IMG/VR virus record: IMGVR_UViG_3300037043_000387
Span: 1 to 51,894 of that record
DNA: 51,894 nucleotides
Strand: one strand, 5' to 3'
Source of the DNA: a virus
Lineage: Duplodnaviria > Caudoviricetes
Position 1 is the first letter of the stretch. Every line of letters starts with the position of its first letter. Position numbers and translations under genes: made by a program. The notes under the pieces were generated by a model. It ran no database searches. It was given only the letters and a program-made list of their open reading frames with translations, and was not told where the DNA came from. This document shows, one piece after another, positions 4,301-50,390 of the stretch.

Positions 4301-4762
4301 ATGACATTCATTGAAGCGGTACAGGCATTAAAGGACAAAAAATGCAGGGGTATCAAGCGACTTGATTGGGGTGACAGTTCTGTTGTGTGGCTGATGGGTA
4401 TGGAAAGTCTGTGTATTTGTGACCTTAACGCCATTGGGGATCCTGACCATCCTTCAAGAGAAATGTATTCCCCGTGTTCGTTTGCTGTTCTCGCTGATGA
4501 TTGGACGACGGTTAATCAGAGGCTTCCTGATGGGTTATTTTCTCAGGTACCAGATGCTGAATCTGTGGCGTTTCAACTCGGTATCATGCGGAACGTAGAG
4601 CGCGAAATCCCAAAACGCAAACGGAAGTCAACTCAGAATTGGGTGCTTGTTCAGGATTACCTGCTCGGGCACACATCAAAGGGCGGCAGTACCTCATGTT
4701 GTATTCACTGCCGATGGATGGGCGTTGATCCTGACGGCTACACATTTCGTGGTGAAATATAA
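4301..4762 (+). CDS. apparent two-part protein; N-terminal half DUF2829/Tad2-like
   Basis: MTFIEAVQALK...IKRLDW...YSP...VLADDW, then an unrelated-looking C-terminal half; stop codon lies in ATATAAC. Confidence 0.55.
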   Translation: MTFIEAVQALKDKKCRGIKRLDWGDSSVVWLMGMESLCICDLNAIGDPDHPSREMYSPCSFAVLADDWTTVNQRLPDGLFSQVPDAESVAFQLGIMRNVEREIPKRKRKSTQNWVLVQDYLLGHTSKGGSTSCCIHCRWMGVDPDGYTFRGEI

Positions 4763-5540: not shown

Positions 5541-5573
5541 CAATGATTGGACCGCTTCTATGCAGTCTATCTC
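5534..5573 (-). mobile_element. attI-like integron recombination site
   Basis: Minus strand GAGATAGACTGCATAGAAGCG-GTCCAAT-CATT-GTTATCTG: L-like box, short spacer, GTT core; directly 5' of and divergent from intI, as in canonical integrons. Confidence 0.55.
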
Positions 5574-5615
5574 CATCACGTGATTTTAACTCAATGTGTT
5601 GAAAGGAGTCGGAAA

Positions 5616-6632
5616 ATGAACACTAAACCTGTTGAACAAACCTTGCATTCGCAAAACCAGCAGAAGCCTCGTGTTCTTGACCTGATCCGCAATACGTGCC
5701 GGGTTAAGGGGTACAGTCCGAAAACGGCAGGCACCTATGGAGATTGGGTTAAGCGGTTTTCCTTTTTTCATGGTCGACGTCCGCTATCGGAGATGGGCGA
5801 GGTTGAGATTGAGGCGTTTTTGACTCATCTGGCGATTGATCACAATGTTGCACCTGCCACACAGAACCAGGCGTTAAATGCTCTGGTCTTCCTCTATAAG
5901 CACATCATTCCCAAACAAATCGGAAATATCGACGCCGTGAGGTCGAAGAAAACAAAGCGGTTGCCGACTGTTTTTACCCGGTCGGAGGTGTCGGCCGTTT
6001 TTCAGCATCTGTATGGCGCAGACAGGATTATGGCCTCTTTGCTCTATGGGTGTGGATTGCGGCTGAATGAATGTCTGCAATTGCGGGTGAAAGATGTCGA
6101 TTTCGAGCGACAGACGGTAACTGTCCGTGAGGGTAAGGGGAGTAAGGATCGGGTGGTGATGTTGCCCGCGGTTGTTTGCGGACCGCTGAAGGCTCACCTG
6201 GAGAGCGTGGCGGAGGTGCACAGACAGGATGTTGCGAACGGGATCGGTGTTTCCCTTCCTGGCGCTTTGCACAAGAAGTACCCGAAGGCTCCTTTTGCCT
6301 GGGGTTGGTTTTACATTTTCCCGGCTCGAAAGGTTTGCACTGATCCGCGTTGGGCTCCAAACGGGCCGGTGCGGCATCATATCCATGAGACTGTTTTGCA
6401 GCGCTCGGTAAAGGAGGCGGTTGGAAAGTCGCAGATCGTCAAGCCCGGCGGTTGTCATACCTTCCGGCATTCGTTTGCGACTCACTTGCTGGAGGATGGT
6501 TACGATATCCGGACCGTCCAGGAGTTGTTGGGTCATGCGGATGTGCGGACTACGATGATTTATACCCATGTGATGGGTAAGGGGTGCTCCGTGCGGAGCC
6601 CAATGGACAAAATGGAGGTTTGTCATGCCTGA
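5616..6632 (+). CDS. intI: integron integrase (tyrosine recombinase, IntI family)
   Basis: N-terminal YSPKT..Y..WV..F...IEAFLTHLA...TQNQALNAL; LLYGCGLR; GKGSKDR; integron-specific insertion VSLPGALHKKYPKAPFAWGWFYIFPA; HTFRHSFATHLL; LLGH...TTMIYTHV; AAAGGAG RBS. Confidence 0.95.
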   Translation: MNTKPVEQTLHSQNQQKPRVLDLIRNTCRVKGYSPKTAGTYGDWVKRFSFFHGRRPLSEMGEVEIEAFLTHLAIDHNVAPATQNQALNALVFLYKHIIPKQIGNIDAVRSKKTKRLPTVFTRSEVSAVFQHLYGADRIMASLLYGCGLRLNECLQLRVKDVDFERQTVTVREGKGSKDRVVMLPAVVCGPLKAHLESVAEVHRQDVANGIGVSLPGALHKKYPKAPFAWGWFYIFPARKVCTDPRWAPNGPVRHHIHETVLQRSVKEAVGKSQIVKPGGCHTFRHSFATHLLEDGYDIRTVQELLGHADVRTTMIYTHVMGKGCSVRSPMDKMEVCHA

Positions 6633-13766: not shown

Positions 13767-13785
13767 ATTCAAAATTATGTTGAAC
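13767..13785. promoter_or_regulatory. RTTCA-N9-TGAAC palindrome, copy 2 (before terS)
   Basis: ATTCA AAATTATGT TGAAC. Confidence 0.7.
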
Positions 13786-13816
13786 AATGATTTGAATTGC
13801 GGTATGTCTTTAATTT

Positions 13817-14485
13817 ATGGATGAGGAAAGATCAAAAAAACCGGCTCACGATAATATCGTTGGCGTCGGTCAGAAGGTGCTCGTCGGTATGGAAGATGTG
13901 ATGGGTTACGATATCTGCCTTTTGGAAGATCCTCGTCATGAAGTGTTTTGCCGCAAGTTTGCCGCGAACAATAATGCAACAAAATCATACATGATAGCCT
14001 TCCCTGGCTGTTCATACGAATCAGCAAGAGCGGCAGGGAGCAGATTGTTAGCAGAAAACAACATCAAGGTCCGGATAGCGCAGATTCAGAAAGAACGACT
14101 AGATCGAATCGAAGTGACGGACCAGAAAATAATTAACGAGCTGGCGAAATTGGCCTTCACGAAAGAGGATGATTTTTATCATGAGAATGGCAGGGTAAAA
14201 GCTCCTCACGAATTGGATCCACATGATGCCGCGGCGGTTCAATCGCGGAAAATCAAGGTTGTGGAGTTGTTTGACGGTAAAGGGAAAGACGCAGTGGCTA
14301 TTGGGACTGCCACGACAACAGAGTTTAAGTTACATTCAAAGACGGACGCGCTGCAGCTATTGATGAGACATCGAAAGATGCTGACGGATAAGGTTGAGAT
14401 GGATCATGGCTTCAAGGATCTGTCAGACGAGGATCTTATCAAGAGGGCGAAGGCACTCCACGCCGAGTTGGGGATAGGTGATTAG
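13817..14485 (+). CDS. terS: terminase small subunit
   Basis: NATKSY...ARAAGSRLL...IINELAKLAF...KLHSKTDALQLL. Confidence 0.9.
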   Translation: MDEERSKKPAHDNIVGVGQKVLVGMEDVMGYDICLLEDPRHEVFCRKFAANNNATKSYMIAFPGCSYESARAAGSRLLAENNIKVRIAQIQKERLDRIEVTDQKIINELAKLAFTKEDDFYHENGRVKAPHELDPHDAAAVQSRKIKVVELFDGKGKDAVAIGTATTTEFKLHSKTDALQLLMRHRKMLTDKVEMDHGFKDLSDEDLIKRAKALHAELGIGD

Positions 14486-15930
14486 TGGCTAGTTATCAGG
14501 ATCTCATAGATATCTACGAGGAACTGGACCGTCGGAAGCGGCGGAAGCGGTTCTTCGAGTATTATCCCGATAGCGGGCCGCTTCGGCGTGATCTCTATAA
14601 GAAGCACATTGCGTTTTTTCGGGCAGGTCTGTACTTCCGGGAACGGGCAGCTATTGCCGCGAACCGTATCGGAAAAACAGAGGGCATGGGCGGCTATGAA
14701 GTGGTTGTTCATGCGACAGGCCTGTATCCGGATTGGTGGCCCGGGAGACGTTTCGATCATCCGATTGATGCCTGGGCTGCAGGTACCACAGGTGAGACGA
14801 CGCGTGACATCATCCAGACAAAGCTGGTTGGTCCTCCGGAAAAAGAATCAGAGTGGGGAACTGCGCTGATCCCGGGTCATCTGATTCAAAATTATGTGAG
14901 GAAGGCCCGGCCTGCAAACTCGCTGGAGGCCGTTATTGTTCGACACGTTTCAGGTGGATCATCAATTATCAATTTCAAAAGCTACGAGCAGGGCCGGAAG
15001 AAGTTCGAGGGTACGGCGAAGCATGTTGTGTGGTTCGATGAAGAGCCGCCGATGGATATTTATACGGAAGGATTGATGAGGACGATGACCGTTGACGGGA
15101 TCGTCCTCTGTACGTTTACACCACTGGAGGGCTTGTCAGAGGTTGTTTTGATGTTCATGCCAGGCGGAAAGCTGCCGGGTGTGAACGATATGATCAGGCA
15201 CGTTACCTTCGCTGATTGGGATGACGTGCCGCATCTTACTGAGAAATCGAAGCGTGAATTGTATGCCGCGTTACCTCCTCACCAGAGAGAGGCCCGTTCA
15301 AAGGGCGTACCTTCACTGGGGTCTGGAGCAATATATCCTGTTGCAGAGGAGATTGTTTCAGTAAAGGATTTTGTGATTCCTCGCCACTGGCCAAGAGCTT
15401 ATGCAATGGATGTCGGCTGGAACTGGACGGCGGCGCTTTGGGGTGCTTTGGATCGCGAATCAGGTGTTGGCTACCTGTATTCCTGCTATAAGCAGGGAAA
15501 GGCTGAACCGGCAATTCACGCCTCAGCTATCCGTTCGCGAGGCAAGTGGATCCCGGGCTGCGTCGATCCGGCTGCAAACGGCAGAAGCCAGAGGGATGGA
15601 GAGCGTCTGATCAATATTTATCAAGACGAGGACCTGGATCTGGTCAATGCAGACAATGCTGTTGAGGCTGGGCTTTATGATGTATGGACGGCTCTTTCTT
15701 CAGGGACGTTGAAGGTGTTCAAGTCGATGTCACCATGGTTTGACGAATACCGGATCTACCGTCGAGACAAAAACGGGAAGATTGTTAAATCAAATGATCA
15801 CTTGATGGACTGTACCCGCTACCTCAAGAGAACCGGATTCAGCCGGGCGATTGTTATGCCGATATCGAACAATGTCATTATGAATGTGAATCCCCGGGTC
15901 AGTGGAAGGCCCAGCGCAATGTGCGCATAG
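14485..15930 (+). CDS. terL: terminase large subunit, P22-like
   Basis: AANRIGKT (Walker A), VWFDEEPP (Walker B), TFTPLEG, MDVGW, NDHLMDCTRY. Confidence 0.95.
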   Translation: MASYQDLIDIYEELDRRKRRKRFFEYYPDSGPLRRDLYKKHIAFFRAGLYFRERAAIAANRIGKTEGMGGYEVVVHATGLYPDWWPGRRFDHPIDAWAAGTTGETTRDIIQTKLVGPPEKESEWGTALIPGHLIQNYVRKARPANSLEAVIVRHVSGGSSIINFKSYEQGRKKFEGTAKHVVWFDEEPPMDIYTEGLMRTMTVDGIVLCTFTPLEGLSEVVLMFMPGGKLPGVNDMIRHVTFADWDDVPHLTEKSKRELYAALPPHQREARSKGVPSLGSGAIYPVAEEIVSVKDFVIPRHWPRAYAMDVGWNWTAALWGALDRESGVGYLYSCYKQGKAEPAIHASAIRSRGKWIPGCVDPAANGRSQRDGERLINIYQDEDLDLVNADNAVEAGLYDVWTALSSGTLKVFKSMSPWFDEYRIYRRDKNGKIVKSNDHLMDCTRYLKRTGFSRAIVMPISNNVIMNVNPRVSGRPSAMCA

Positions 15931-15939
15931 GAGTCAGGT

Positions 15940-18123
15940 ATGCAAACCAATAGCAGTAGTGGCGTACCACCGGCAGAGCTTGGTGATTTCGAGAGCGCTC
16001 AATCAGAGATGCAGCGCTTCTGGTTCTCCTGCAGAAACGGCCATGAGGATTATGTCCGTCGCAACCGGAGGAACTACCGCTATTTTCATGGAGACGGCGG
16101 ACACTGGTCGGACGATGACCGTGCCTTCATGGAATCTGTCCAGGGCCGGAAGTGTTTCGAGATTAATCTATCGAAACAGGCCGTCTTGACCGCGGTCGGG
16201 GAACAGATAGCTACCCGTGCTGATATCACGTATAAGCCTAAGAAAGGTAAGGCCTCTGCGGACACTGCCGTTATTTGGTCGAAACTGGCAAAGCATTTCC
16301 TTGATCAAAACAATTTTCACATACTCGAAACAGACGCTTGGGAATCCGGACTGATAGCAGAACGGGGATATTACGATATCCGCATGTGTTTTGACGGAAA
16401 CCTGAATGGCGAGATCAAGATTACTCTGCCGGATCCTGTAACAGTTATTCCCGACATATTTGCTACCGAGTATGACCCTAAAGAATGGCCGGGCGTTATG
16501 CGGTTCATGTGGCTGACGCTGGATGAAATAGCAGGAATGTATGGAGACGAAGCCCGCGAAACAGCCAAAAAAGACTGGGAAAACTATCGTGACCGGCCTT
16601 TAACTGATGAATTCCCCGTGGAAAATGCTTCCGATTTGAATTATGGCTTTGGCACCTCTCCTGGAGCATATTACCAGTGGTGGGACAAGGAAACCGGAGA
16701 ACTGCGACTTCGGGTTATCGAGCGCCAGTTTTACAAGCGGGAGATGGCACTTCATTTCATAGACATGACCACTGGGGATACTGAAGTAGTTCCGCATTCC
16801 ATGGGAATCAAAAAGGCACGACAGTATGCAGCCGATAACGGCCTGCTTCTTCAAAAAATGGAGGGGAAGGTGCTCTATTGGCGTGTCGTGACAGCAACAA
16901 CAGTTCTGTTTGATGAACAGAGTCCTTACAAAACCCCGACCATTATTCCTTTCTTCTACCTGTTCAATAAGGGAAAAACAGGGAGTATGATTGCGGATGC
17001 AATATCTCCCCAAGACCTCCTGAACAAATCAGTATCGGCGGTTGTTCACTACCTGACGACCGTAGCAAACTCGGGCTGGCAGGTGGAAGAAGGCCAGTTG
17101 ACAAATATGACGACTGCGGATCTGGCAAATGTCGGAATGAAAACCGGTGTTGTTATTGAGAGGAAGGCTGGGACACAGCCGCTTCAAAAAATAACACCGA
17201 ACACATTCCCTACCGGCATGGATCGTCTCTGTGAAAGAGGCGAGGCCTGGGTTAAGGCTGCCACGGGGATGAGTGATGCAGAACAGGGACTTAATTCTCC
17301 AGAGGTGTCCGGTATCGCAATCGGGATGAAACAGTTTCAAAGCAAGCTGCAGCTGGCAAAGCCCTTATCGAACCTCCAGTTTACCCGCACGTTGGTCGGC
17401 CGGAAGATCATAGAGCTTGGCCAGCAATTTCTTACCAATGAGCGTATTTATAAAATTACCGGCCAGGATGATTATGGCCGGCCGAAGGAAGAGGAGTTGA
17501 TTATCAACCAGGTTGATGAGTTTGGGAATATTCTAAACGACATCACCGTGGGCGAATATGAGGTAGAGGTCTCCACTCAACCGATGGCGGCGACGTATGA
17601 GGAGAGCCAGTTCAAGCAGTTGGGAGAGATGCGCGAGAAGATGAAGGTGGCTATCCCTGATGATGAGATTGTCAGAAGATCAAATATATCAAATAAACAT
17701 GACCTGGCAGATCGTATCGCGAATCCGCAGGACAATGGGACACAGCAGGCCCAGGCCGCCATGCTGGAAAAACAGCTCGAAGAACTATCGGCAAAGGTTG
17801 AACTGCTCAAGGCGCAGCGGACCAAGGTTGTGGCGGAGGCAACAAATACCAATATCCAAGCAATGTTTGGGGCAACGAACGCGGGTAGGGTTATTGCCAT
17901 GACTCCCGGGGTGGCGCCATTAGCCGATGAGTTGATGTTGTCGGGAGGATTTGAGGACCACAACGCGGCGCCGGTTATTCCCCAGAATGTGCCACAATTG
18001 ACGCACGTTCAACCGATTACGCCGAAGAATACCAGTCCTAATTTTCCACCACAGGCAGATCGTGGTGTTACAGCCGGTATTGAAAGCGGAAATATCCCTA
18101 CTATACCTTCTATTGCAGAGTGA
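15940..18123 (+). CDS. portal protein (podovirus/P22-like)
   Basis: 727 aa after TerL; PQDLLNKSVS; SGIAI; DITVGEYEV. Confidence 0.9.
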   Translation: MQTNSSSGVPPAELGDFESAQSEMQRFWFSCRNGHEDYVRRNRRNYRYFHGDGGHWSDDDRAFMESVQGRKCFEINLSKQAVLTAVGEQIATRADITYKPKKGKASADTAVIWSKLAKHFLDQNNFHILETDAWESGLIAERGYYDIRMCFDGNLNGEIKITLPDPVTVIPDIFATEYDPKEWPGVMRFMWLTLDEIAGMYGDEARETAKKDWENYRDRPLTDEFPVENASDLNYGFGTSPGAYYQWWDKETGELRLRVIERQFYKREMALHFIDMTTGDTEVVPHSMGIKKARQYAADNGLLLQKMEGKVLYWRVVTATTVLFDEQSPYKTPTIIPFFYLFNKGKTGSMIADAISPQDLLNKSVSAVVHYLTTVANSGWQVEEGQLTNMTTADLANVGMKTGVVIERKAGTQPLQKITPNTFPTGMDRLCERGEAWVKAATGMSDAEQGLNSPEVSGIAIGMKQFQSKLQLAKPLSNLQFTRTLVGRKIIELGQQFLTNERIYKITGQDDYGRPKEEELIINQVDEFGNILNDITVGEYEVEVSTQPMAATYEESQFKQLGEMREKMKVAIPDDEIVRRSNISNKHDLADRIANPQDNGTQQAQAAMLEKQLEELSAKVELLKAQRTKVVAEATNTNIQAMFGATNAGRVIAMTPGVAPLADELMLSGGFEDHNAAPVIPQNVPQLTHVQPITPKNTSPNFPPQADRGVTAGIESGNIPTIPSIAE

Positions 18124-18131
18124 GGGCGGAG

Positions 18132-18293
18132 ATGGCTAGTAATCCACTGAAAAAACTGGACCCGGACTGGAAAAAGAAGCTGTCTGACTGTATGAAAGAA
18201 ATCGGGATGCTCGATATGCCGTTTGGACAAATTACCGTTCATATCTCTGATTCCAAGGTGTCTGAGGCGCTGAAGCAGGAACGATACAAATAA
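18132..18293 (+). CDS. 53-aa DUF2292/YezD-like protein
   Basis: MASNPLKKLDPDWKKKLSDCMKEIGMLDMPFGQITVHISDSKVSEALKQERYK; FG-I-V-I-D-KV pattern; read manually. Confidence 0.55.
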   Translation: MASNPLKKLDPDWKKKLSDCMKEIGMLDMPFGQITVHISDSKVSEALKQERYK

Positions 18294-18296
18294 TTA

Positions 18297-18324
18297 TTGA
18301 CTTTCGCCATGGTTGCGTGATAAT
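18297..18324 (+). promoter_or_regulatory. putative sigma70 promoter
   Basis: TTGACT-16 bp-GATAAT. Confidence 0.45.
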
Positions 18325-18331
18325 GGCCAAA

Positions 18332-18420
18332 ATTGAATAGAACGCGGTAAGTCGAAACCTTTCAAGGTAATTGAGACCCGCACCTTCAGTCGAAACATGA
18401 CTATCGGTGCGGGTTTTTTT
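18332..18420 (+). terminator. antiterminator/terminator RNA switch, copy 1
   Basis: Terminator GAGACCCGCACC...GGTGCGGGTTTTTTT overlapped by competing stem GCGG-TAA-GTC...GAC-CCGC. Confidence 0.75.
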
Positions 18421-18431
18421 CGTTTTATGCT

Positions 18432-18450
18432 GTTCAAAATTATTGTGAAC
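18432..18450. promoter_or_regulatory. RTTCA-N9-TGAAC palindrome, copy 3
   Basis: GTTCA AAATTATTG TGAAC. Confidence 0.75.
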
Positions 18451-18496
18451 GGATGGACATATGAACAGAGTGCAACCGATTTCGGGGAGGTCATGC

Positions 18497-18679
18497 ATGG
18501 GAAAGATGGACGCACAAGAGAGGAAGTGGCGGACCGAGGAAGACTTGAGAACCCTTGCAAACGCCGAGGAAATCAAACGAGATCCGGAAAGAATGAAGGC
18601 CTGCAAGGTCATGGCAAAACAGCGCATGACTGACCTGGAAGGTGTTGTTTCCGGCGGCGGGGCCAAGGCTAAGGGGTAG
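18497..18679 (+). CDS. small head-associated phage protein
   Basis: GGGGAGG RBS; WRTEEDLRTLANAEEIKRDPERMK. Confidence 0.7.
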   Translation: MGKMDAQERKWRTEEDLRTLANAEEIKRDPERMKACKVMAKQRMTDLEGVVSGGGAKAKG

Positions 18680-18709
18680 GACAACTATGTAATTTTGGAG
18701 GAGGACCAC

Positions 18710-19645
18710 GTGGACGCAAGAGACAAGACAAATGAAATGACGGAAGAACAGTTGGCCGAAGCACGGGGCGATGTATTTGTGCCGGAGGATAGTAATGAAA
18801 TCGTGTTGAAAGGCGATATGGACCCTGGAATCCTGGCAGCTATTGCCGGAGATGAGGGGGAACCGGTAGATGACGAAAGTGGAGAAAAGGGCGCTGCTAA
18901 AAAGGACGACGAACAGGGCAAGAAAGACGACTTCATTCCGAAGGCTCGTTTCAACGAGTTGAACAATGAAAATAAACAGTTGAAGGCACGCCTGGAAGCT
19001 CTCGAAAAGGGCGGTGGCGATCAAATAGTAGTTGAGGAAAAGAAAGAAACTCCTCCGGACTTACGGACTCAGTTGAAAGAGCTCCGTACCTTGCAGAAAG
19101 ACGCCTTACTGGAAGGCGACCATAACGAACACTCCAGATTGACCGACGAAATCGATTCTATGCAGATAGCGATTGCCAAGGCTGAAATCCAGGCAGAACA
19201 GCGACAAGAAAAAACTCAGGCCGAATTGGTTCAGGACCTGGATAAGGCGGCCTCTGCGGCAATGGCGCTTTATCCGTTTCTGGATAACAAGTCGGACGCT
19301 TGTGATCCGGTTGCAGTTGTCGCGGTGAGAAGTTGGCGGGCACAGCTTGAGGCACAGGGGCTGGCACCTGCGGAAGCCCTGCGCCAGGCAGTAGAGGATC
19401 TGGGACCAAAATTTGCCCAGATTAACGGTGTCGTGATCGACCCGGATAAGGCCGAAGATGTTCGCAAAGCAAGGAACCTGGAAGCTTTGAAAAGAAATTC
19501 GGACGCTTCCTTGAGACAGCCATCTGTATTGCCGGGAAAAACAGAGAAGGATTCTTTCGTCATTAACGTCAATGACCTTTCTCCGGCCCAGATGAAAGCC
19601 CTATCTGAGGACCAGAAGGCCAAATTGAGAGGAGACGTTCTCTAA
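18710..19645 (+). CDS. capsid scaffolding protein
   Basis: Acidic coiled coil, IPKARFNE, C-terminal LRGD; lies before the major capsid gene. Confidence 0.8.
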   Translation: MDARDKTNEMTEEQLAEARGDVFVPEDSNEIVLKGDMDPGILAAIAGDEGEPVDDESGEKGAAKKDDEQGKKDDFIPKARFNELNNENKQLKARLEALEKGGGDQIVVEEKKETPPDLRTQLKELRTLQKDALLEGDHNEHSRLTDEIDSMQIAIAKAEIQAEQRQEKTQAELVQDLDKAASAAMALYPFLDNKSDACDPVAVVAVRSWRAQLEAQGLAPAEALRQAVEDLGPKFAQINGVVIDPDKAEDVRKARNLEALKRNSDASLRQPSVLPGKTEKDSFVINVNDLSPAQMKALSEDQKAKLRGDVL

Positions 19646-19667
19646 GGCTTGTCCACTTACGGACAGA

Positions 19668-19806
19668 GACCGATGCCCCTTAGTGGTCGTTTTCGCCCTG
19701 GAACGGCGCAAAAAGTTCCCAGTGACCGACGCCCCTGTGAAGAGGTCGTTTCCGCCAATGCGAAGGCGCAAAACAACGCAAATCCAATGAGTCACAACGA
19801 AACGAC
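19668..19806 (+). ncRNA. tandem hairpin plus pseudoknot motif in the major capsid 5' UTR
   Basis: Two copies of GACC..GGTC-GTTTY-CGCC-loop-GGCG-CAAAA; each loop pairs with its own downstream sequence. Confidence 0.6.
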
Positions 19807-19830
19807 AACTACATAACAAGGAGCGACATT

Positions 19831-20988
19831 ATGGGAATGACAAATTTCGGGCAACTCGATCCCGACAAGATCAAGTTTATTCAGAAGGAAATCCGTCATG
19901 AGACGGAAGCATCTTCGTTTCTCCTCCCGCGCTTTTGCGGGAAGGGCTTCAATTACCCCATTGAAAGAATCACCGAACTGCGCAGGATGGAAGGCGGCGG
20001 TGAAGAGTGCATCATGACCCTGGTTAACCACCTGGTCGGTGATGGCGGGGTAGGATCCACTGGCGGCAAGCGTGAGGGCCGTGAAGAGCGGATGCACAAA
20101 TCTCAACAGAAGATCCAGATCGATGAGATCTTCAACATGGTCCGCAGCGAAGGCGAGCTGGCCGAACAGGCCAGCGTGGTTCAGTTCCGCAAGGAAGCCA
20201 AGCCGGCACTCAAGTACTGGCATGCCAACAGGACCGATCAGCTTTTGATGCTGGCTGCTTCTGGTATTTCCTTTGCCTACAACCTGGATGGTTCTTTACG
20301 TTCGGAAGTGCTCGATGTCGAGGGAGTGCCGATCAGCTCCGACTTCGTACAGCTTCGCTATGCCGCCGATATCAAAGCCCCCTCTGCCAAGCGTCATCGC
20401 CGATGGGATGGTACGGCCAAGAAGCTGGTAGCCGGTGATACATCCGCGGTGGCCGTAGCTGACGTTCCCAGTTATAAGATGCTGCTGATGGCAAAGGCAT
20501 ATGCCAGGACTCACCGTCTCATGCCTCTCCAGGCAGGCGGGAAGCAGTGGTATGTGGTTCTGATGCAGCCCTATTCTCTGGCGATGTTGAAAAACGATCC
20601 TGACTACAAGAACGCCGTCATTACCGGCGGGGTTCGCGGGGATGATAACCCGTTCTTTTCCGGCGCAATCGCAACCATCGACGGTCTTCTGCTGGTTGAG
20701 TACGAATATGTATTCAATACCACAGGGGCTTCTACTCGTTGGGGCGCTGGGGGTGCTATCAACGGAACCAGGACTTTGTTGTGGGGTGCCCAGGCTCTCG
20801 GATATGCAGACCTCGACCAGGGCGGCGAACCGCGCTACGAGGAAAAGGTATTCGAGTACAACACTCAGAAGGGGATCATGGTCAGCAAGTTCGGCGGAAT
20901 TCTTCGGCCGCAGTTTTACAGCACATTCGACCGAAGCGTCGAGGATTTTTCCTGCCTGGCCATCGACCACTACATGGAAGAATACTAA
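19831..20988 (+). CDS. major capsid protein, N4-gp56/DUF4043 family
   Basis: MTNFG..., IERITEL, EGREE, PSAKRHRRWD, RGDDNPFFSG. Confidence 0.9.
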   Translation: MGMTNFGQLDPDKIKFIQKEIRHETEASSFLLPRFCGKGFNYPIERITELRRMEGGGEECIMTLVNHLVGDGGVGSTGGKREGREERMHKSQQKIQIDEIFNMVRSEGELAEQASVVQFRKEAKPALKYWHANRTDQLLMLAASGISFAYNLDGSLRSEVLDVEGVPISSDFVQLRYAADIKAPSAKRHRRWDGTAKKLVAGDTSAVAVADVPSYKMLLMAKAYARTHRLMPLQAGGKQWYVVLMQPYSLAMLKNDPDYKNAVITGGVRGDDNPFFSGAIATIDGLLLVEYEYVFNTTGASTRWGAGGAINGTRTLLWGAQALGYADLDQGGEPRYEEKVFEYNTQKGIMVSKFGGILRPQFYSTFDRSVEDFSCLAIDHYMEEY

Positions 20989-20992
20989 GCAG

Positions 20993-21018
20993 CATGGGGA
21001 GGTTTCGGCCTCCCCATG
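20993..21018 (+). terminator. stable hairpin after the capsid gene
   Basis: CATGGGGAGG-TTTCGG-CCTCCCCATG; no T tract. Confidence 0.5.
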
Positions 21019-32943: not shown

Positions 32944-32962
32944 GTTCACAATAATATTGAAC
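32944..32962. promoter_or_regulatory. RTTCA-N9-TGAAC palindrome, copy 4
   Basis: GTTCA CAATAATAT TGAAC (near-reverse of copy 3). Confidence 0.75.
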
Positions 32963-32988
32963 GGAAACCGGAAATAAGGGGGTGGCAG

Positions 32989-34554: not shown

Positions 34555-37500
34555 ATGGACTGGCTTAACGATATCGTTGCGAATGCGAAGAAGCAGGTTC
34601 TGACCGGCGAGGCTGGAAAAGGAATGGCAGAACTGGAAGCCATGGCGACCTTTACTCCTGAACCAACCAATGCCGTGAAGGAATTCGGCAAGGGCGTGGT
34701 GGCGGGGACTCTTCAGCTTCCTCAGATGGCCGGAGGCCTGGTCAAGGTTGCCGGTGATCTTGTCGGTAGCGAAACCGTGGCTGATATCGGTGAAGATGCG
34801 GTGAACTACTGGGGGGAGAAGACGGCCCCCTATACGCCACGTGTCGGATCGATCGAGGACGTGGAAAACGTCGGTGATTTTGTCGATTATGCGGCGGCCG
34901 GCATAGGTTCTCTGGTCCCGACAGTTGCCGCCTCGATGATCGGGGGCGGTGGCGCAGCGGCGATCGCAGGCAAGTCTGCTCTCAAATCGGCGGCAAAGAA
35001 GGAACTGACAAGGGAAGCTACCGAAGCCCTGGTATCCAAGGCTGTTACCCGTGGTGCAATGGCGGGGGCTGGCTCAACGTCCGCCGGTATGGAGATTGGT
35101 TCCATCGGAGCCGATCAGATGGAGGCCGGGACGGAGGATCCGATAAAGGCGATTCTCTATGGTTCCGTGGCTGGTGCATTGGATATTCTCCCGGTTACCA
35201 ACCTGCTGGCAAAGTTTCCGGCATTCAAGTCCCTGCAAAAGATACCGCTTTTCAAGTCACCAGAAGGCAGGGCGTGGTATACACGCGGCGTTATGGAGGG
35301 CTTTAAACAGTCCGGGATGGAAGGTGCCCAGGAAGCGGCACAGACGATGCTGGAACGGGCTGGTGCCAGTCGGGAAGTATTCAGCGACCAAGGCATGATG
35401 GAGATCCTGAACGCCGGTATCATCGGAGCAATTGGCGGCGGCGTCATGGGTGGCGGCGCTGGTGTGTTGAGTGGCAGGGGTAAGGAACGGGTAACGGGGA
35501 ACGAGGAGAACCTTGAGACTCAGACTCCTGGTCTTAATCCGGCTGCCGTTCAACCGGATCCCTTTTCGGATGCCGGTGATCCTCCTCATCCGGTCGTGGA
35601 TCTGGAGTCTCAGGAAAACCCGGTTTTGCCGGAAGCGCCGAAGGGACCGTTGGCCAGGGCGGCGGAGGCTGCTGGTGCTTCAATTTTTCCGGGGATCGGG
35701 GATGTCGTTCCCGGTTCTGTAACCGCTTCCGTTCCGCCGATTGGGGGGCAAACCTCTGATGAGCTGGTTCTTGATGAAGCCCGTGATTGGGCTGAGGAAG
35801 AAATCAAGGCGGGGAAAACTCATTTGATGCGACAGGTGCGGGAGCACCCGAATTCCTATGCCCTGCGGATTCTGGACTCATTCAAGCGGCGGGCAGAAGT
35901 TCCGGTTGTGAACCAGGGTGAGACAGGGCCGAAGTACGCCAATGTTTCCCTGGTCAATCCCGAAACAGGTATAGCCGAGATGGTGACGCCTGCTGAAGTT
36001 ATGGACCGGCTCAAAACTGGCTGGCGTGCTCCGGAAGCACCGTCAAACACTCCTGATGTAGACATGCTTGGCAGCGTTACGGACGCGGATCGTGGCCTTC
36101 TCCAGTCGGCTCGTGACAGGGCCGGTTACTGGGAACGCGGGTCGATGGATAATGGCCAGACAAATAAGAATGAGCTGTTCCCCTGGTTGAAGGATTGGGG
36201 AAAGACCACTCCGGCAGAGGTGTCCAAGGCTATCGGGAATTTCTTGGAAGGTAAGAATCTGGGCGAAGTGCAGCAAAGGCTGGTTACCGCGGCTCTCCAA
36301 TTTGAGCGGGAAAGCAGGCAGCCAAGGGGTGCAGCTCCGGCGCAGGGTATCGGTGACCTGATAGCCGAACGCAGGGGGGTGAAGGGCGTAGCCAAGGAAC
36401 AGGGGGCAGGGAACAGGGGAAATCTTGAATCTCAGGCCTCGAACCTTGAACCTGCTGTTTTGAAGAAGGCACAACTCTATGCTGAGAAGGCGGGGCTTGA
36501 TCTTGATGGTTGGAGCAATGACGAGATTTCCGATTTTGTCGGCAAATATGACTCGTTTGTTAAGAGTAAGTCCCGGGCGGCGGAACCTATCGCCAGTATC
36601 GGGGATCTTATTGCGCAGCGGCGGGCGATGAATCAGAAGAAGGGGACTCCTGGAATTGAAGCAGGGGCACACGAAGCGGCTACCTCTCCCCTTAATGATC
36701 TTGCAGAACCGAGCGAGGCCCAGGTAAAGGCTGGGAACTACCGGAAGGGCCATGTTTCTATTCAGGGCCTTGATATCTCAATCGAGAATCCGGCGGGATC
36801 CGTCCGTTCAGGAAAGGACCAGAACGGAAAACCGTGGTCTACCGCTATTCATCATCATTACGGCTATATCAAAGGAACTGTCGGCAAAGACAAGGACCAT
36901 ATCGATACCTTCATCGGTGACAAGCCGGAAGGCGATCGCGTTTTTGTTGTCGACCAGATTGATCCAAAGAGCGGCACGTTTGACGAGCACAAGGTGATGA
37001 TCGGCTTTGACTCCAAGAATGAGGCGACTCTTGGCTATTTGCGCAACTATGACGATACCGGACAAACTCGCATTGGTGATGTTTCCGAGATGACGATGGA
37101 TGACTTCAAGGCTTGGCTCAAGAGCGGGAAGACTAAGACGCCGGTTGGGCAGTTGAAAAGGGGGGATGAATCACAAGGCAAAGGAAAGCCGGCGGTGCAA
37201 CCTGCCAATGAGGCAAGGGGAAAGATCGTTGCGAAGCTGAAGGCTAGTGGTGCCGATGAAGCGACGGCCGGTAAGATTGCTGATCTGATTGCGGAAGAGT
37301 ATGCCGGTAAGAAGACGCTGGGGCCTGCCTGGCTGGGTAAGAGGATCAAGGAAGGCTGGATTGATAAATGGAAAGTCCAGACTCAGTTGAAAAGCGGAGG
37401 AAAAGAGCTTGAGGATCTGTCACCTAAAGAAATAGCGGCTCTGCCTGAAGGAAAGGTTGATCATCCGGTTACTGCTGCGCTGAAGGGGAAAGGAGCGGAC

Positions 37501-40500
37501 CTTGATAAACAACAGGGAGAAGCGAAGGAAAAAGCGGAAATAGGTGGGGTATCCGACAAAGAGCTTGACGACAAGGCTGCAAATGAGGCGCTGCGGGAGA
37601 AAGTAGCGGACCTTGGTGAAGCTCGATCCACTTCCACCGATGAAGTGCAGGCCAAGAATAAAGAGAGATTCAAAGAGGCTCAACGGAAACACCTGCGTAA
37701 AAAGATTGCCGAGGCAAGATCAGAGGCGGATAAAACCAGGTTGGCAAAACTGTTGGGGAAACTCCAGGAAAGAAAACAAGAGATTACGGAAAAACCAGCA
37801 ACAAGTATTGATGATGAGGTCAAAAACCTTTCTCTGGACGATCTGTCTGCTATGTTTGATGAGGTTGCCGCCGAGTCCCAACCGAAGGTGGAGACCAGAA
37901 CTGTCGAGCAGGCAACGCCGGGAACATCCTCACGCATGTCGTTGAAAGAGACGGTTCACTCGAAGAAGGGCCATACGCTGTTCGTAGTAACGATGAACGA
38001 GCGGGTAGAGCGGGATGAATACGACCGTCTGAACCGTGACGCAAAGCGGACTGGCAACGGCTATTCGTCGTATCGTGGCCACGGCGCTGTCCCTGGTTTC
38101 CAGTTTCTCGATAAAAGCGCAGCTGAAGAGTTTATGCAGCGGTGGGGAGGCGAAGGCAAAGCTGTAGAAACACTCGATGTCTCAAAAGAAGATCCTCAAC
38201 AGGCCCGGACGGCTACAGAGATACTAAAGGAGGCCGCGAGCCAAGGAATAGAAGGAGTGGGCGATGCTGTTACCGGGCTCTATGAGCTTTTCGGCGGTGC
38301 CGCTCTCAAGTCTTTCCCCGGCGGTCTGGATGAAGCGACCTACAGTAAGGCCAAGCCACATTTTCAAGCGGCTTTCGACAGGTTCCGTGAGGCCGGAAAA
38401 GGGATCAAGGAGTTCTTCCGCTTCCTGATTGAACAGTTTGGCCCTGGTATCAAACCGTATTCCATGAAGTTTGTGGCAGAGTTGCAAGGTAATTCCTTCA
38501 AGGAGCTTAACAAAACGAGGGGAAGCTTGACGGAAAGCGCCTCGAATGATAATATAGTTAATGAGAATAGTACAATCAATGAGGAGGGAACGGACCGTGA
38601 CGACACAGGAAATGGCGGCAATGGCCCGCAAGCACTGGAAAGCGTACCATCCGGAGACGTACCGGGAGATGGAGAAACGCGACGACCTGATAAAAGAGTC
38701 GGAAGCAGCGGCAAAACTGACGCAACGCGAGATGGATACATTGATGACGAGCGGGATGACGGTATCGGAAGCCTGGGAAGCGTCGAAGTCCCTGTTCATC
38801 TTCAGCGACCCGTCGAAGGACTACAACCCGGATTAGAACACGTCCCCACTCCGGCGAGTGAGCCACGCAGCCTGTTCCTTTCCGGAGAAAACCCCGGCAA
38901 TTACCGTATTGCGGAATCGGATCGTATCGGCGAAGGTACCCGGGGCCAACGCATCGACAGTAACATGGCCGCAATCCGGATTGCCAAACAGCTGCAGGCC
39001 GAAGGCCGCTATGCTACCCGTACGGAACAATCCGCTCTGGCCCGTTATGTCGGATGGGGCGGACTGAAGAGCGTCTTCGACCCGACATCAACCAAACCCC
39101 AGGACCAGAAAGCCCGCGCAGAACTGGAAAGCCTCTTGACGAAAGAGGAATATTTCGAGGCTCGACAATCAGTCCTTAACGCCCACTACACCTCACGCGA
39201 AGTTATTGGCGCAATCTATGACATGGCCCGTCATTTCGGGTTTTCCGGTGGGAATGTCCTGGAGCCTACCTTTGGCATTGGTAACTTCATCGGCTTCATG
39301 CCCAGCGAACTTGCTGCCTCTTCCAAATGGTACGGCGCTGAACTTGATCCGATTACTGCCGTAATAGGGAAGCATCTCTATCCCGATTCGCAACTCCTCA
39401 ACGTCGGCTTCCAACAAGCCGAATTCCCCTACAACAAATTCGACCTGGCAATCGGCAATCCACCTTTCGGAGACGAAAGGATTACCGACACCAACAAGCG
39501 ACGCTCTGAAATCGACGGCATGAAGATTCACAATTATGTCATTGCCAAGGCCGGAATGCACCTGAAGCCCGGCAAGTTGATGGCAATGGTGGTGACAAGC
39601 CGCTTCCTTGATACGGCCAACCCGGAGGCCAGGGGACACCTTGCCAAAGATTTTTCTTTCCTGGGCGCTATTCGCCTGCCGAACAACGCATTTGCCAAGA
39701 GTGCCGGTACGGACGTGGTAACCGACCTGGTATTTTTCCGCAAACTCATGCCCGACGAAAAGCCGGATCTTTCCGCTGATTGGCTCACGACCGGAGCGAC
39801 GTTAAACAACGAAGACGGCGAGGCGGTCACTCTCAATAAGTATTTTGCTGAACGTCCACACCTGATGATCGGTAAGCCATCCATGCAGGGGTCAATGTAT
39901 GGCGGTGGAGCCAGGGGGGATCAGTTCACCCTTTCGGCCCGTGAAGGACAAGACACCGGCGCCTATATCGAATCCCTTCTGGGTAAGGATTTTGCCTCAC
40001 TGAAGGATGTCCTGAAAGAGCGGGTGAACGACCAGGCCGAGGCGGCCGCTGTCTCTCTTGAGATGAACCGCGAGGATGTGGGTGTCGGAGGATATGTCCC
40101 TGAAGGCAGCGATGTGTTTATGCGCGAAGATGATGATGCTGACGGCAACCCTGTTTTCGTAAAACTTACCGCGGAGACTCAATGGACGGAAAAGACAAAG
40201 TTGGGTAAGACCCGACTGGACCGGATCAAAGGTATGCTGGAATTACGGGGCCAGACTTACAAGCTGATAGAGATGGAGCGGTTCGACCAGCCCGGGATTG
40301 AGCGACACAGGACACAGCTTAACCGGCTCTATGATGCTTTTGTGAAGGCACATGGCTATATTAATGATTCTGCCAATGCCGGACTTATGGCTGATGATGT
40401 CAAAATTGAATTCGGACTGGAGGTGAATTACCGGAAACCCATCAGCGTATCAAGGGCAAAGTCCATGGGGGTAAAACCGCAAGGGGCAAAGGCGGACAAG

Positions 40501-43500
40501 GCTTCACTCCTGAAAGAAAGGGTTTTCTACCCGCAGAAAGAGATAACTACGGCGGCGAATGCCCGCGACGGCTACGGGATATCCCTTTCGGAAAAAGGCC
40601 GTCTCGATCTGGAGTACATTGCCAGACTGACCGGCAAAGAAAAGAAAGAGGTTATCACTGAACTTGCCGATGAAGGATTGATATTGCAAGATCCCGAGAC
40701 ATTGGAATGGGTACAGGAGGATGAATACCTTTCCGGGAACGTCAAGGCCAAGCTGAAGAGCGTACAGCACCGGGAAGGGTATGAACGCAACGCGGCGGCG
40801 CTGAAAAAGGTGCAACCAAAAGATGTGGCCACGGATGATATCTTTGCCGATCTTGGCTCTACCTGGATCCCCGCCAAGGTGTACGAGGACTTTGCCGATC
40901 TGATGGGAATAAAAGGGGCAAAGGCCCATGTTTCCGATGCAACGGGAACCGTTACGATTGTCGATCATAAAAGCATCAACCAGAACGATATGAACGTCTT
41001 GCTGAAGAATGACGACTATACGATTGCGGAACTGTTCAACTTTATTGCCAACAAAAGGGCGGTGGTCGCCTATGACCATGACTCTGAAGGCAAGCGGTTC
41101 GTAAACAAGGACCGGACAAAGCTTCTCGTTCCTATCGCCAAGCGTTTTACCGCTACCTTCCGTGATTGGATAATGGCGGACCCGATGCGTGCCCAGGAGC
41201 TGACAAAGCTCTACAACGACACCCAGAATACCCATGCGGAGAGGGTCTTCGACGGAAAGCACCTGAAAACCGTAGGGGCTAATCCGGCTATCATCATGCG
41301 AAACACTCAGCGTAATGCAGCCTGGAGGATGATCCAGGCTCCCGTTACGCTATTGGATCATGTTGTCGGCTCGGGAAAGACATATACCATCATCACCGGC
41401 ATTATGGAACGCAGGCGACTGGGTTTGTCGCGGAAGCCGCTGGTGGTTGTGCCGAATCATCTGGTTGGCCAGTGGGCGAAAGACTTTCTCAGGCTCTACC
41501 CCGGGGCGAATATCCTTGCGGCTACGGAAAAGGATTTCAGTAAGCCGAACCGTCGACGGCTGTTCTCCCGTATTGCTACCGGTAATTTTGATGCGGTTAT
41601 TGTCGGACATTCATCCTTTGGCTTTATTCCCTTGGAGCAAGAAACGGAAATCAAGTTTGTGCAGGAAGAGATGGAATATCTCGAAAGGGCACTCTCTGAT
41701 GCTGCCTCTGCAGAGGATAAGCGTACCGTCCGTACCCTTACCAACCGCATAGCCAAGAAGCGGGAGCGTATCGCTCGCTTGCAGAACCGGGACCGGGATA
41801 ACGTAGCCACCTTCGAGAGTATGGGGATCGACCACTTGACCGTGGACGAGAGTCATGAATTCAAAAATCTGGAATACTCGACATCGATGCAGAATGTTAC
41901 CGGCATGGGTTCCCCGGCCGGCGCAAAGAAATCTTTCGACCTCTACGCAAAGATACGTTATTTGCGGTCCGAAGACGGCGCTGTTACTTTTGCCACGGGT
42001 ACACCAATAAGCAATTCGCTGGTGGAGATGTATACCCTGCTCAGGTATTTAAACCTGGAAGGACTGAAGGAGCGCCGACTCGATGCCTTTGACGCCTGGG
42101 CCAAGTCATACGCCGGAATAGAGACGCGCATAGAGTATACCGCTACACAGAAGCTGAAAGAACGCGGCGTGATGGCGGAATTCAATAACCTGCCCGAATT
42201 GTTGCAGCTCTATACAGAATTTGCCGACATTGTTTCCATGTCTGACTTGAAGAGGATTTATGCGGAACAGATCCGGGAGAGCAACCGGGCAACCGGCGCC
42301 AACGAACGGGAAGAATTCCCGGTACCGAAGGTGAAAGATGGTGCCAGGGTTCTGGATATCGCTGATCCGCTTGCCAGCCAGCGGGAATTCATGGACTACC
42401 TGGTTGCCAGGGCAACGAGGCTTGAGCGACTGGGCGGCCAGAACGACCCGAAGATAGATAACCATTTGTGGGTGATGAACGACGCTCGCAAGATGGCGCT
42501 CGATATTCGCCTGGTGGACCCGTTGGCTCCGGCAGATCCAAACAACAAGATTGGCCGGTCTGCTAAAAACATCAAGCGGATTTACGACAAGTGGACTGCC
42601 GACAAGGGAACTCAGCTGGTTTTCTGTGACCTGTCGACGCCTGCGAAGCAATCTGACAAGGATGCAAAGAAGTTTATCAAGGATTCTCTCACGGTTTTAG
42701 CAATGCAAAAGGACACCAGGGTCCAGGCGGTGCTGGATTCTTTGACGTGGCGGGAACAGTGGTCATACCTGAAAAACAGGATGGAAGCAAAGGTTGAGGA
42801 GTTGAATAATGCCCTGCAGGAAAACTCGAACCTTTCCGACGCTGATGAAAAATCTCTGAACAACTGGATGAACGACCTGGAAAAATACCTCGAAGAGGTG
42901 AGCGACGAGGACGAGGCGGCACTCACGACTGCCGACACCGGCTTTTCCGTCTATGACGATTTGAAATCCCAGCTTGTGTCGATGGGTATTCCTGAAAACG
43001 AGATCCGGTTTATCCATGAAGCGAATACGAAAGATAAGAAAGAAGAACTGTTCGGCATGGTCAATTCCGGAGAGGTGCGGGTGCTCCTTGGTTCGAGTAA
43101 GAAGATGGGCGCCGGCACCAATGTTCAAGAACGAGTCGTTGCGCTTCATCATCTTGATGCTCCGTGGCGGCCATCCGATGTGGAGCAGCGTGAAGGCCGG
43201 GCGGTTCGGCAGGGGAATACGCTGTATGACCGTGATCCTGATGGTTTCGAGCTGGAACTGATTGCATATTCCACCGGAAATACTTTTGATGCAGTCATGT
43301 GGCAGGTCTTGGCCCGCAAGGCTGAAATGCTTGAGCAGTTCCGGAGTGGTGTGCGCAGCGTCCAGGAAGGGCAATCGGATGCCGACAGCTACGCAACCTT
43401 TATGGCGGAATCAACCGGGAATCCTGCGTTTAAGGAAAAATACCGGCTGGAGAATGCAATAGAAGAACTCGAAGGGATGCAGAGAAACGTGCAGGCCAGA

Positions 43501-49770: not shown

Positions 49771-49789
49771 GTTCATAATTATTTTGAAC
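49771..49789. promoter_or_regulatory. RTTCA-N9-TGAAC palindrome, copy 5 (before the lysis cassette)
   Basis: GTTCA TAATTATTT TGAAC. Confidence 0.75.
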
Positions 49790-49811
49790 ATGCGCCTGGC
49801 AACGGGCGAGG

Positions 49812-49901
49812 ATTGAAAAACGGGTAAGTTTCAACCCGGAAGTCTTAGGGTACCAGAAACCCCGGCAACGTTTTCAAAGACGATGCCGGGGTTTCTTTTT
49901 T
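49812..49901 (+). terminator. antiterminator/terminator RNA switch, copy 2
   Basis: Terminator AGAAACCCCGGCA...TGCCGGGGTTTCTTTTTT overlapped by CGGG-TAA-GTTTC...GAAAC-CCCG. Confidence 0.8.
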
Positions 49902-49910
49902 GGGGGATGC

Positions 49911-50390
49911 ATGGATTTAACAATCGTAGATCGGTGGTTCCTGATTTTTTTGGTAATTGTCCTGGTTGGGGCTGTTGGGCTTATATCAAAATTGTGTCTA
50001 GCTGCCTTGAAAAAGATCTACGAAGGACTTACGGCTTCTATTTTTAAGCTGGAATCAAGCCTGGAAAAAACGGTGGGTGATTTTAAAGAGGCTTTACGCG
50101 AGATTGTCTCCGACCAACGTGGAAGCAACATGCTGATTACTGCACAGGTGACGGACATGGATAAGCGGTTATTCCACATACAGGGGGAGCATGACCGCTG
50201 CATGGAAGATCATGCCATTCATAAAATAGCGGGACGGGTCTCAACTTTGGAGGCTCAGTACCTGGTTCTTCAACGAGAAACAATCTTCGGGCGCAGGGCT
50301 ACAGACTACCCGCGTGACGGGATCCCGCATCCGTACCAGTCGAGAGAAACCTGGCCGGTTGAGGAGGGGGATATTAATGCAGACGATTGA
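49911..50390 (+). CDS. membrane-anchored coiled-coil lysis-module protein (holin/antiholin-like)
   Basis: N-terminal TM helix, coiled coil, precedes the endolysin. Confidence 0.55.
   Translation: MDLTIVDRWFLIFLVIVLVGAVGLISKLCLAALKKIYEGLTASIFKLESSLEKTVGDFKEALREIVSDQRGSNMLITAQVTDMDKRLFHIQGEHDRCMEDHAIHKIAGRVSTLEAQYLVLQRETIFGRRATDYPRDGIPHPYQSRETWPVEEGDINADD

Follow-up and report, generated by a model that had tools for sequence, protein, structure and literature searches.

The window analysed here is the 51,894-bp IMG/VR provirus record IMGVR_UViG_3300037043_000387, in which nearly all genes lie on the + strand. Its packaging block, encoding TerS, TerL and a P22-type portal, ends with a gene for a 53-residue basic protein of a family that we name FTG, from its F-T-G...G-G pattern. 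Between this gene and the head genes lies an RNA element, copy A, in which a bulged hairpin and an intrinsic terminator share part of their sequence; a second element of the same build, copy B, lies near the late end of the window, directly ahead of a gene of the lysis region. Here, we describe the two elements and their counterparts in related phages and bacterial chromosomes, and weigh the reading that they are attenuators worked by the FTG protein.

Two hairpins that share sequence with intrinsic terminators

In both copies, the RNA is able to form a three-tier hairpin composed of a 4-bp base (P1), a UAA bulge and two upper helices (P2 and P3), which reads GCGG-UAA-GUC-GAA-ACCU-UUCA-AGGU-AAUUGA-GAC-CCGC in copy A and CGGG-UAA-GUUUC-AA-CCC-loop-GGG-UACCA-GAAAC-CCCG in copy B. 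The 3' strands of P2 and P1 open, in both, the 5' arm of a long terminator stem, and the bases common to the two structures (18373-18381 in A and 49856-49864 in B) render the folds mutually exclusive. This is the architecture that the initial annotation of the window had described, a UAA-bulged stem whose 3' strand serves as the 5' arm of a terminator, and it is borne out to the coordinate, as is its recurrence at 49812-49901 with compensatory changes: two of the four P1 pairs differ between the copies on both strands (GCGG/CCGC versus CGGG/CCCG). Terminators A and B are both G+C-rich stem-loops followed by a U-run. A conserved box, AUUGAAUAGAAC in copy A, precedes the hairpin, and its counterpart in copy B reads AUUGAAAAAC. 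The pattern ATTGAA..ACG..GGTAAGT is found twice in the window and is expected zero times (100 shuffles), a count that is circular, the pattern having been derived from those very copies.

As isolated segments, the hairpins fold to nearly the structure given in the initial annotation, and forcing the hairpin over the whole leader costs 11-18 kcal/mol. Since the terminators are far stronger than the hairpins, termination would be the default and the hairpin would need help to form. Whole-leader folding is more stable than in shuffled sequences (z -2.51 for A and -5.58 for B), mostly owing to the terminators.

The pairing was further examined in an alignment of ten sequences, in which P1 is paired in 40 of 40 cells (100%) and two of its four pairs are altered on both sides. 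P1 forms in every lineage examined despite letters that change from GCGG/CCGC (copy A and the chromosomal types ii and iv described below) to CGGG/CCCG (copy B) and CCGG/CCGG (the phage locus L123). P2 is 72% and P3 80% paired, a shortfall due in part to the MAFFT alignment, in which some rows are displaced by a column. For the complete structure, the paired fraction of cells is 83.3%, compared with 77.9% in shuffles, and 2 of 500 shuffles reach the former value; the covariation score is 0.133, compared with 0.048 in shuffles, again with 2 of 500 reaching it. The energy of pairing between terminator arm and leader, set against shuffled leaders, gives z -0.72 for A and -0.04 for B.

The surroundings of the two copies differ in a way that bears on what they may control. 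Behind the U-run of terminator B, a GGGGGA ribosome-binding site (49902-49907) and an ATG at 49911 follow directly, leaving a 10-nt gap with no space for a promoter, so that gene 49911 would be reachable by read-through alone; no FTG gene adjoins this copy. Copy A is separated from the head genes by a 20-nt palindrome, D1. The consensus (G/A)TTCA-nAAT(T/A)ATnn-TGAAC occurs five times, at 1547-1566, 13767-13786 and 32944-32963 and at the two sites in Table 1, every copy standing in an intergenic gap ahead of a + strand gene block. In related phages, the AATTAT core is kept and the arms are replaced, by ATCCGCC/GGCGGAT in G001, G003 and L189 and by TTCGTCAA/TTGACGAA in L190. These palindromes look like the phage's own promoter/operator set, with arms that change together between phages. 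Because one of them stands between terminator A and the head genes, the latter probably have a start site of their own, and terminator A probably serves primarily to end the TerS-TerL-portal-FTG unit. The initial annotation had the element gating the head operon; this is doubtful for copy A, where the palindrome intervenes, and gating is far more compelling for copy B, 10 nt before its ATG. A sigma-70-like site also precedes leader A and is made by a stretch of about 19 nt that is missing from the chromosomal cassettes (L273/L265 alignment); the window FTG gene has no promoter-like site of its own ahead.

An Rfam scan, which the initial annotation had put forward as a check, gave no match at gathering score across the whole window. 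At E up to 10, it returned weak rows only, of which the strongest (Leu_leader, rnk_pseudo and int-alpA) align chiefly on the terminator stems, and no curated Rfam aptamer model of the known riboswitch classes matches A or B.

Table 1. Positions of the RNA elements, promoter-like sites and genes in the window
Feature	Position	Strand	Details
5' box A, AUUGAAUAGAAC	18332-18343	+	Immediately 5' of hairpin A; identical in chromosomal cassettes L273 and L267
Hairpin A, candidate antiterminator	18344-18381	+	-10.3 kcal/mol; model R1 50.8 bits; P1 18344-18347/18378-18381, UAA bulge 18348-18350, P2 18351-18353/18375-18377, P3 18357-18360/18365-18368, loop UUCA
Intrinsic terminator A	18373-18420	+	12-bp stem 18373-18384/18407-18418, U7 run to 18420, -24.5 kcal/mol
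5' box B, AUUGAAAAA	49812-49820	+	
Hairpin B	49821-49864	+	-12.3 kcal/mol; model R1 43.0 bits; P1 49821-49824/49861-49864, UAA bulge 49825-49827, P2 49828-49832/49856-49860, P3 49835-49837/49848-49850
Intrinsic terminator B	about 49854-49901	+	13-bp stem to 49897, U-run to 49901, UUUCUUUUUU, -29.6 kcal/mol
Sigma-70-like promoter, TTGACT-16-GATAAT	18297-18324	+	10/12 consensus matches; consensus match only; precedes leader A
D1 palindrome, GTTCAAAATTATTGTGAAC, promoter/operator-like	18432-18451	+	Between terminator A and head genes
D1 palindrome, copy 5	49771-49790	+	Upstream of leader B; with TTGAGT at 49752 forms sigma-70-like TTGAGT-16-CATAAT
Helix-turn-helix repressor-like gene	early region	minus	
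Integrase	5547-6632		Early region, which also holds a C5 methylase gene
TerS	13817-14485		Packaging block
TerL	14485-15930		Packaging block
P22-type portal	15940-18123		Packaging block
FTG, 53-aa basic small protein	18132-18293	+	Closes the TerS-TerL-portal block
Scaffold-like gene	18695-19645		Named from position and relatives; without family match
N4-gp56-type major capsid gene	19831-20988		
159-aa gene, first behind terminator B	49911-50390	+	Hydrophobic N-terminal stretch, judged by eye from the DNA
Endolysin-like gene	50314-51045		phrog_181 endolysin, E 2.7e-23 (50314-51042)

The FTG family and its linkage to matched hairpin subtypes

The reading frame of the window FTG gene is real and conserved, as judged from matches to a family profile. 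With a profile built from the phage FTG proteins, 126 cluster representatives are retrieved at E up to 0.001, mostly of 45-70 residues, and the members are basic proteins of about 50-60 residues (isoelectric point 8.8 for the window protein; family median 9.3, with 91% of 47 members above 8). Structure models made with AlphaFold2 predict a helix and a beta-hairpin with middling confidence (predicted local distance difference test scores of 70.6 and 69.5). The initial annotation had called the protein DUF2292/YezD-like. A conserved small-protein family does exist, and its kinship to DUF2292 is a remote lead only: PF10055 (DUF2292) matches 3 of 46 FTG members, tied with PF19976 (GAAD, also 3 of 46), with the best E of any family (0.0036), and all PF10055 matches fall below the Pfam gathering threshold and do not include the window protein. 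For the latter, Pfam returns no family at E up to 10, and it likewise gives none for five phage FTG homologues. The DUF2292 lead in the Atlas is likewise weak (rank 11, score 0.78, the family being present in only 11% of that cluster). DUF2292 proteins are of similar size, about 50-60 residues, and presumably share with FTG a C-terminal 'G-x-hydrophobic-x-hydrophobic ... GG/DG ... E-K-x-E' pattern. A sequence profile search of the PDB with the small protein found nothing below E 0.078, and tblastn with the family member P0141 found no match in the phages collection.

Among phages, a portal query yielded one relative only, and an alignment based on the major capsid protein led to 54 viral, 7 genomic and 39 metagenomic loci, in which the gap between portal and scaffold genes is variable. 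Six lineages carry an FTG gene (the window, with the identical L187 and L188; L002; L116; L119; L117/118/168/192; and the L123 group), and in all six a strong terminator stands directly 3' of it. The three lineages that have no FTG gene, L189, L190 and L115, have no strong terminator between portal and scaffold. The L123 hairpin is of the same build, GCCGG-UAAG-GAUC-A-ACC...GGU...GAUU-GC-CCGGU. In L002, the order is palindrome, small gene, terminator, head genes, a layout from which we conclude that its head genes do depend on read-through. The relatives examined show neither leader nor terminator after their counterparts of the giant gene that precedes copy B, and copy B thus appears to be particular to this phage. 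At the nucleotide level, blastn of window positions 17000-21000 found no match in the phages collection, and an exact-motif scan of viral contigs gave at least 111 stretches, of which the matches listed look like chance, being mostly coding and none with a hairpin and terminator.

In bacteria, the FTG profile matches 81 of 239 genomes of the order to which a related Geobacteraceae metagenome-assembled genome belongs. The elements downstream of these genes sort by FTG subfamily, each subfamily having its own hairpin subtype. Subtype i (protein motif NFSGKVVISFK) is followed by the Rfam Moco-II leader (in 5 of 5 loci scanned, at 47-64 bits), then a terminator and a zinc-ribbon gene. Subtype ii (LDPEWKRKL..LQVT), 58% identical to the window protein, is followed by AAUUGAAUAGAAC..GCGG-UAAG-UCUCA-UCCC-UACG-GGGC-AAGUGAAA-CCCGCG and a terminator, the A-like hairpin being found behind LDPEWKRKL genes in 12 of 12 loci. 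Subtype iii (EFTGHVKINF) carries a GGGUACCUUGCUG...GGGGUACCAGAAAGCCCGA hairpin, the 3' half of which it has in common with copy B, and subtype iv (FGGKMEIDW) carries GCGG-UUAG-UUUGC-AACCC-GCAA-GGGA...GCGAAA-CCCGCA. The window FTG gene, hairpin A and terminator A align end to end with a chromosomal type-ii cassette, through the terminator loop and the U-run.

A model of the hairpin, R1, was built from ten hairpins (types A, B, L123, ii and iv). Among 151 genomes it matches 18, once each, and 17 of the 18 matches lie 30-190 nt downstream of an FTG match on the same strand. Seeds for the model came from five of these 18 genomes; among the other 13, 12 matches adjoin FTG. The co-occurrence of hairpin and small-protein gene that the initial annotation had proposed to check is found beyond the window, the order FTG gene, cognate hairpin, terminator recurring in phage relatives and on many chromosomes. 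Across 844 kb of related-phage loci, R1 gives three matches, all of them its own seeds, and misses the divergent leaders of L116, L118, L119 and L002.

The Moco-II motif (Rfam RF01713), which was first listed by Weinberg et al. (2010, Genome Biol 11:R31, PMC2864571), occurs in 4-9 copies per genome in five genomes (G118, G107, G100, G113 and G037; loci L276-L287). One copy per genome stands directly behind a type-i FTG gene and ahead of the zinc-ribbon gene, and the remaining copies are terminator-bearing leaders before genes judged by eye to be molybdoenzyme-type or cysteine desulfurase-like. The phage mirrors this layout, with one FTG gene, site A adjoining it and site B without an FTG neighbour. 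All 16 Moco-II-positive genomes among the 151 are FTG-positive, a number that probably reflects close kin and is not an independent count.

Three further observations concern the chromosomal loci. The type-ii loci L288-L301 all contain GEMM-I-clan riboswitch matches (14 of 14; 40 in total, 1-4 per locus), of the c-di-GMP-I, -GGC and -UAU models, mostly upstream of the FTG gene and on the same strand, and L248 has such matches as well; from this position, the chromosomal type-ii small protein appears to be under cyclic-dinucleotide control. In the type-ii cassettes L261 and L272, the 3' half of the hairpin, GGGCAAGUGAAACCC, is tandemly duplicated, giving the 5' strand two alternative partners. 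At L302 (G118:C55:11700-13300), an A-like hairpin and terminator (element at about 783-829) lie between the integrase and AlpA-like genes of an integrated element, with a TTGACA/TATACA promoter of their own in front and the terminator behind.

A candidate protein-dependent attenuator and its alternatives

The layout described above resembles that of several known systems. In HutP-hut, GlcT-ptsG and the ribonucleic antiterminator (RAT) systems of BglG and SacY, a regulator gene stands directly ahead of its own antiterminator/terminator site, in which a protein-binding hairpin overlaps the terminator's 5' arm, with the target genes behind, and further sites lie before other operons. FTG would have the same layout, with a regulator gene, then a terminator overlapping a candidate protein-binding hairpin, and more sites elsewhere. 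It differs in that the protein has only about 53 residues and Pfam shows no CAT/PRD or HutP domain in it; on the RNA side, bglG-cis-reg scores 21.5 bits on copy B against a threshold of 80, and no CAT/PRD domain is found among 29 scanned open reading frames (ORFs) of the window. These tests exclude membership in the HutP, GlcT or BglG-type families. In lambdoid phages, the pR'-tR' region consists of a promoter and a short terminated leader before the lysis and late genes, and read-through by Q is needed for lysis. Lambda Q acts through DNA and a paused polymerase, with no competition between an RNA fold and the terminator. The initial annotation recognised no Q-like antiterminator in the window, and we agree as far as the Pfam scan goes: no Q family is found among the same 29 ORFs, which are not all of the ORFs in the window, and distant Q-like proteins could escape it.

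Moco-II is among the closest known systems. It is also a small hairpin with two stacked helices ending ...AACGAAACCCGC and running into an intrinsic terminator, and it occurs in the same bacterial order. Its helices correspond by position to P2 and P3, which in the phage are followed by GACCCGC (A) or AACCCCG (B) entering the terminator, as is ACCCGC in Moco-II, and its conserved UGCG...CGCA flanks could form a P1. Against a shared identity, the Rfam model has no outer helix, its bulge and loop sequences are unlike those of A and B, and these precede head and lysis genes rather than the molybdenum-cofactor-related genes by which Moco-II is characterised. Even with E allowed up to 10, the Moco-II model (gathering score 35 bits) does not match A or B, and L123, L248 and L254 fall below its gathering score. 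The open literature searched, with the 2010 supplement outside the search, holds no link of Moco-II or DUF2292 to a protein-RNA pair of this kind, no function for DUF2292 and nothing relevant on YezD, and passages of one Geobacter cGAMP riboswitch paper contain nothing on an FTG gene. There is a fair chance that FTG represents a new family of attenuation proteins.

The reading that we prefer, and to which we give about an even chance, is that A and B are paralogous, protein-dependent cis-acting attenuators, for which FTG is the most likely factor. In the proposed model, the short leader folds to the three-tier hairpin, whose bulge reads UAA(G). Unaided, the leader prefers the terminator by 11-18 kcal/mol, so a factor holding the hairpin would permit read-through. 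The basic protein encoded just upstream would be that factor, FTG and hairpin forming a cognate pair that phages and Geobacterales chromosomes carry as a cassette. Made together with the packaging genes, FTG would bind the bulged hairpin and thereby decide between hairpin and terminator. It would let RNA polymerase through terminator A into the head genes, supplementing their promoter-like site, and through terminator B, the sole route into the lysis-region gene 49911, so that lysis would be delayed until this late-made protein opens it. The competing folds, their overlap, the cassette homology and the linkage of gene and RNA with matched subtypes are observed; from them we infer FTG binding, the direction of its effect and the role in timing, and FTG could equally favour termination.

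A more far-reaching version, which we put forward tentatively and consider rather doubtful as a whole, would make FTG a new family of RNA-binding attenuation factors with subfamily-specific hairpins, and Moco-II a protein site instead of a riboswitch. The phage would have captured the pair and gained a second site for lysis timing; because the closest chromosomal FTG copies sit behind tandem cyclic-dinucleotide (GEMM-I) riboswitches, host FTG could open the phage sites as well and tie lysis to host signalling. If the small protein does work the switch, it would provide a function for a tiny-protein family with 126 representatives, present in a third of one bacterial order, name a partner for the orphan motif Moco-II, reveal, in a temperate phage, a device for timing lysis that resembles neither Q nor N, and offer a compact protein-hairpin-terminator module (a gene of about 160 nt and an RNA of about 85 nt) as a reusable genetic part.

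Attenuation by FTG has to be weighed against a number of findings. The covariation stems from only about four to five independent lineages, and a control in which the 3' partners are slid by -1 scores 0.122, close to the 0.133 of the true register. Set against shuffled leaders, the energy of the antiterminator pairing is no better in any of six lineages (z -1.76 to +0.72). From the pairing statistics and this null energy test together, we consider it likely, though short of proof, that the antiterminator pairing has been conserved in evolution. With a promoter-like site behind element A, the head genes may not depend on read-through, and in L189, L190 and L115 they follow a D1-type motif with neither small gene nor strong terminator. 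On chromosomes, a strict script that looks for a terminator within 330 nt succeeds at only 42 of 56 FTG loci; at about 7 of the 14 others, inspection by eye reveals a hairpin whose U-run is interrupted. At the FTG loci L250, L252, L253 and L255 the next gene follows directly, nothing is visible at L247 and L257, and the A-like hairpin on G118:C55 has no FTG match on its contig. The protein itself lacks a convincing fold match (Foldseek against pdb, none at E up to 0.001; best VIA Z 2.6).

Several of these findings are what one would expect if the element were a passive terminator of an acquired host-type cassette, ending and stabilising the FTG transcript and insulating transcription units, with no switch and with copy B as a duplicated, leaky terminator. 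The cassette is homologous end to end with chromosomal ones, in which the A-like subtype shows one gene to one hairpin (17 of 18 genomes), an arrangement that also fits a plain 3' end of the FTG transcript; with the promoter-like D1 site behind terminator A, the order is the classic one of a terminator and then a promoter; the energy test is non-significant; and L189 and L190 manage without such an element. A plain terminator leaves unexplained why the stretch on the 5' side of the bulge has kept its complementarity to the terminator arm as both changed, why copy B came to lie between a promoter-like site and a gene that starts only 10 nt on, and why hairpins without an FTG neighbour stand as 5' leaders before other genes. 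We consider it unlikely; if it were correct, the window would be a clean case of a phage acquiring a host gene plus its 3' end.

A further alternative is a ligand-sensing, riboswitch-like attenuator, an idea once considered for Moco-II, in which a small molecule or ion would be recognised by the hairpin itself, with the FTG gene just a frequent neighbour. Moco-II copies without an FTG neighbour precede molybdoenzyme- or cysteine-desulfurase-looking genes (N-termini, by eye), the overlap of hairpin and terminator resembles an expression platform, and Table 1 of Weinberg et al. 2010 (PMC2864571) carries Moco-II as a cis-regulatory candidate with an open 'switch?' entry. A sensor of this kind is nonetheless improbable: the hairpin is a very small and simple one, A and B match no riboswitch family in Rfam, and each protein subfamily comes with its own hairpin sequence, as would be expected of a protein partner more than of one shared ligand. 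The FTG gene, moreover, lies upstream of the element and so is not regulated by it, and a phage lysis cassette has no obvious metabolite logic.

Both modules have a promoter-like site directly 5', sequence conservation that is strongest in the 5' part, and a strong terminator with a U-tail, features that would also describe trans-acting small RNAs of about 90-115 nt, with the 5' box AUUGAA..GGUAAGU as the seed for phage or host mRNAs. We regard such RNAs as quite improbable, since the chromosomal homologues have no recognisable promoter of their own and lie 30-190 nt behind the FTG stop codon, and since gene 49911 begins 10 nt past terminator B, so that the module must double as a leader. Finally, the switch could be worked by something other than the phage FTG protein: a Q- or N-like protein that has escaped recognition, the pace or coupling of the transcription complex, or FTG paralogues of the host. 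This is very improbable, because it does not account for the pairing of FTG subfamily and hairpin subtype across chromosomes, even if most early-region ORFs are without a family and the window FTG gene is without a preceding promoter-like site.

Two other readings of the leaders were dropped. A ribosome-mediated (leader-peptide) mechanism was rejected, the stop codon lying 21-122 nt ahead of P1 across lineages, and a sigma-54 promoter reading of the GGCACAATTGAA box, made by eye, has an unsuitable spacing.

Neighbouring genes

The gene that precedes copy B is a giant frame (34555-49755) at the late end of the window, encoding 5066 residues, with relatives of 5119 residues in G003 and 5231 in G002 that are 41% identical across the last 399 residues. 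At 18497-18679, between the D1 palindrome and the scaffold-like gene, the window encodes a conserved protein of 60-85 residues with the pattern W-x-E-(E/D)-DLR-x-L. Homologues are found in L002, L115, L117/118/168 and L190, the frame of the L190 copy being interrupted by a stop; the protein has no Pfam or PHROG family and is the product of the first head-block gene in several relatives. In the early part of the window, the ORF at 4301-4762 weakly resembles Tad2 (Thoeris anti-defence 2): its Pfam match has E 1.4e-4 and, at 22.7 bits, does not reach the cut-off of 25 bits.

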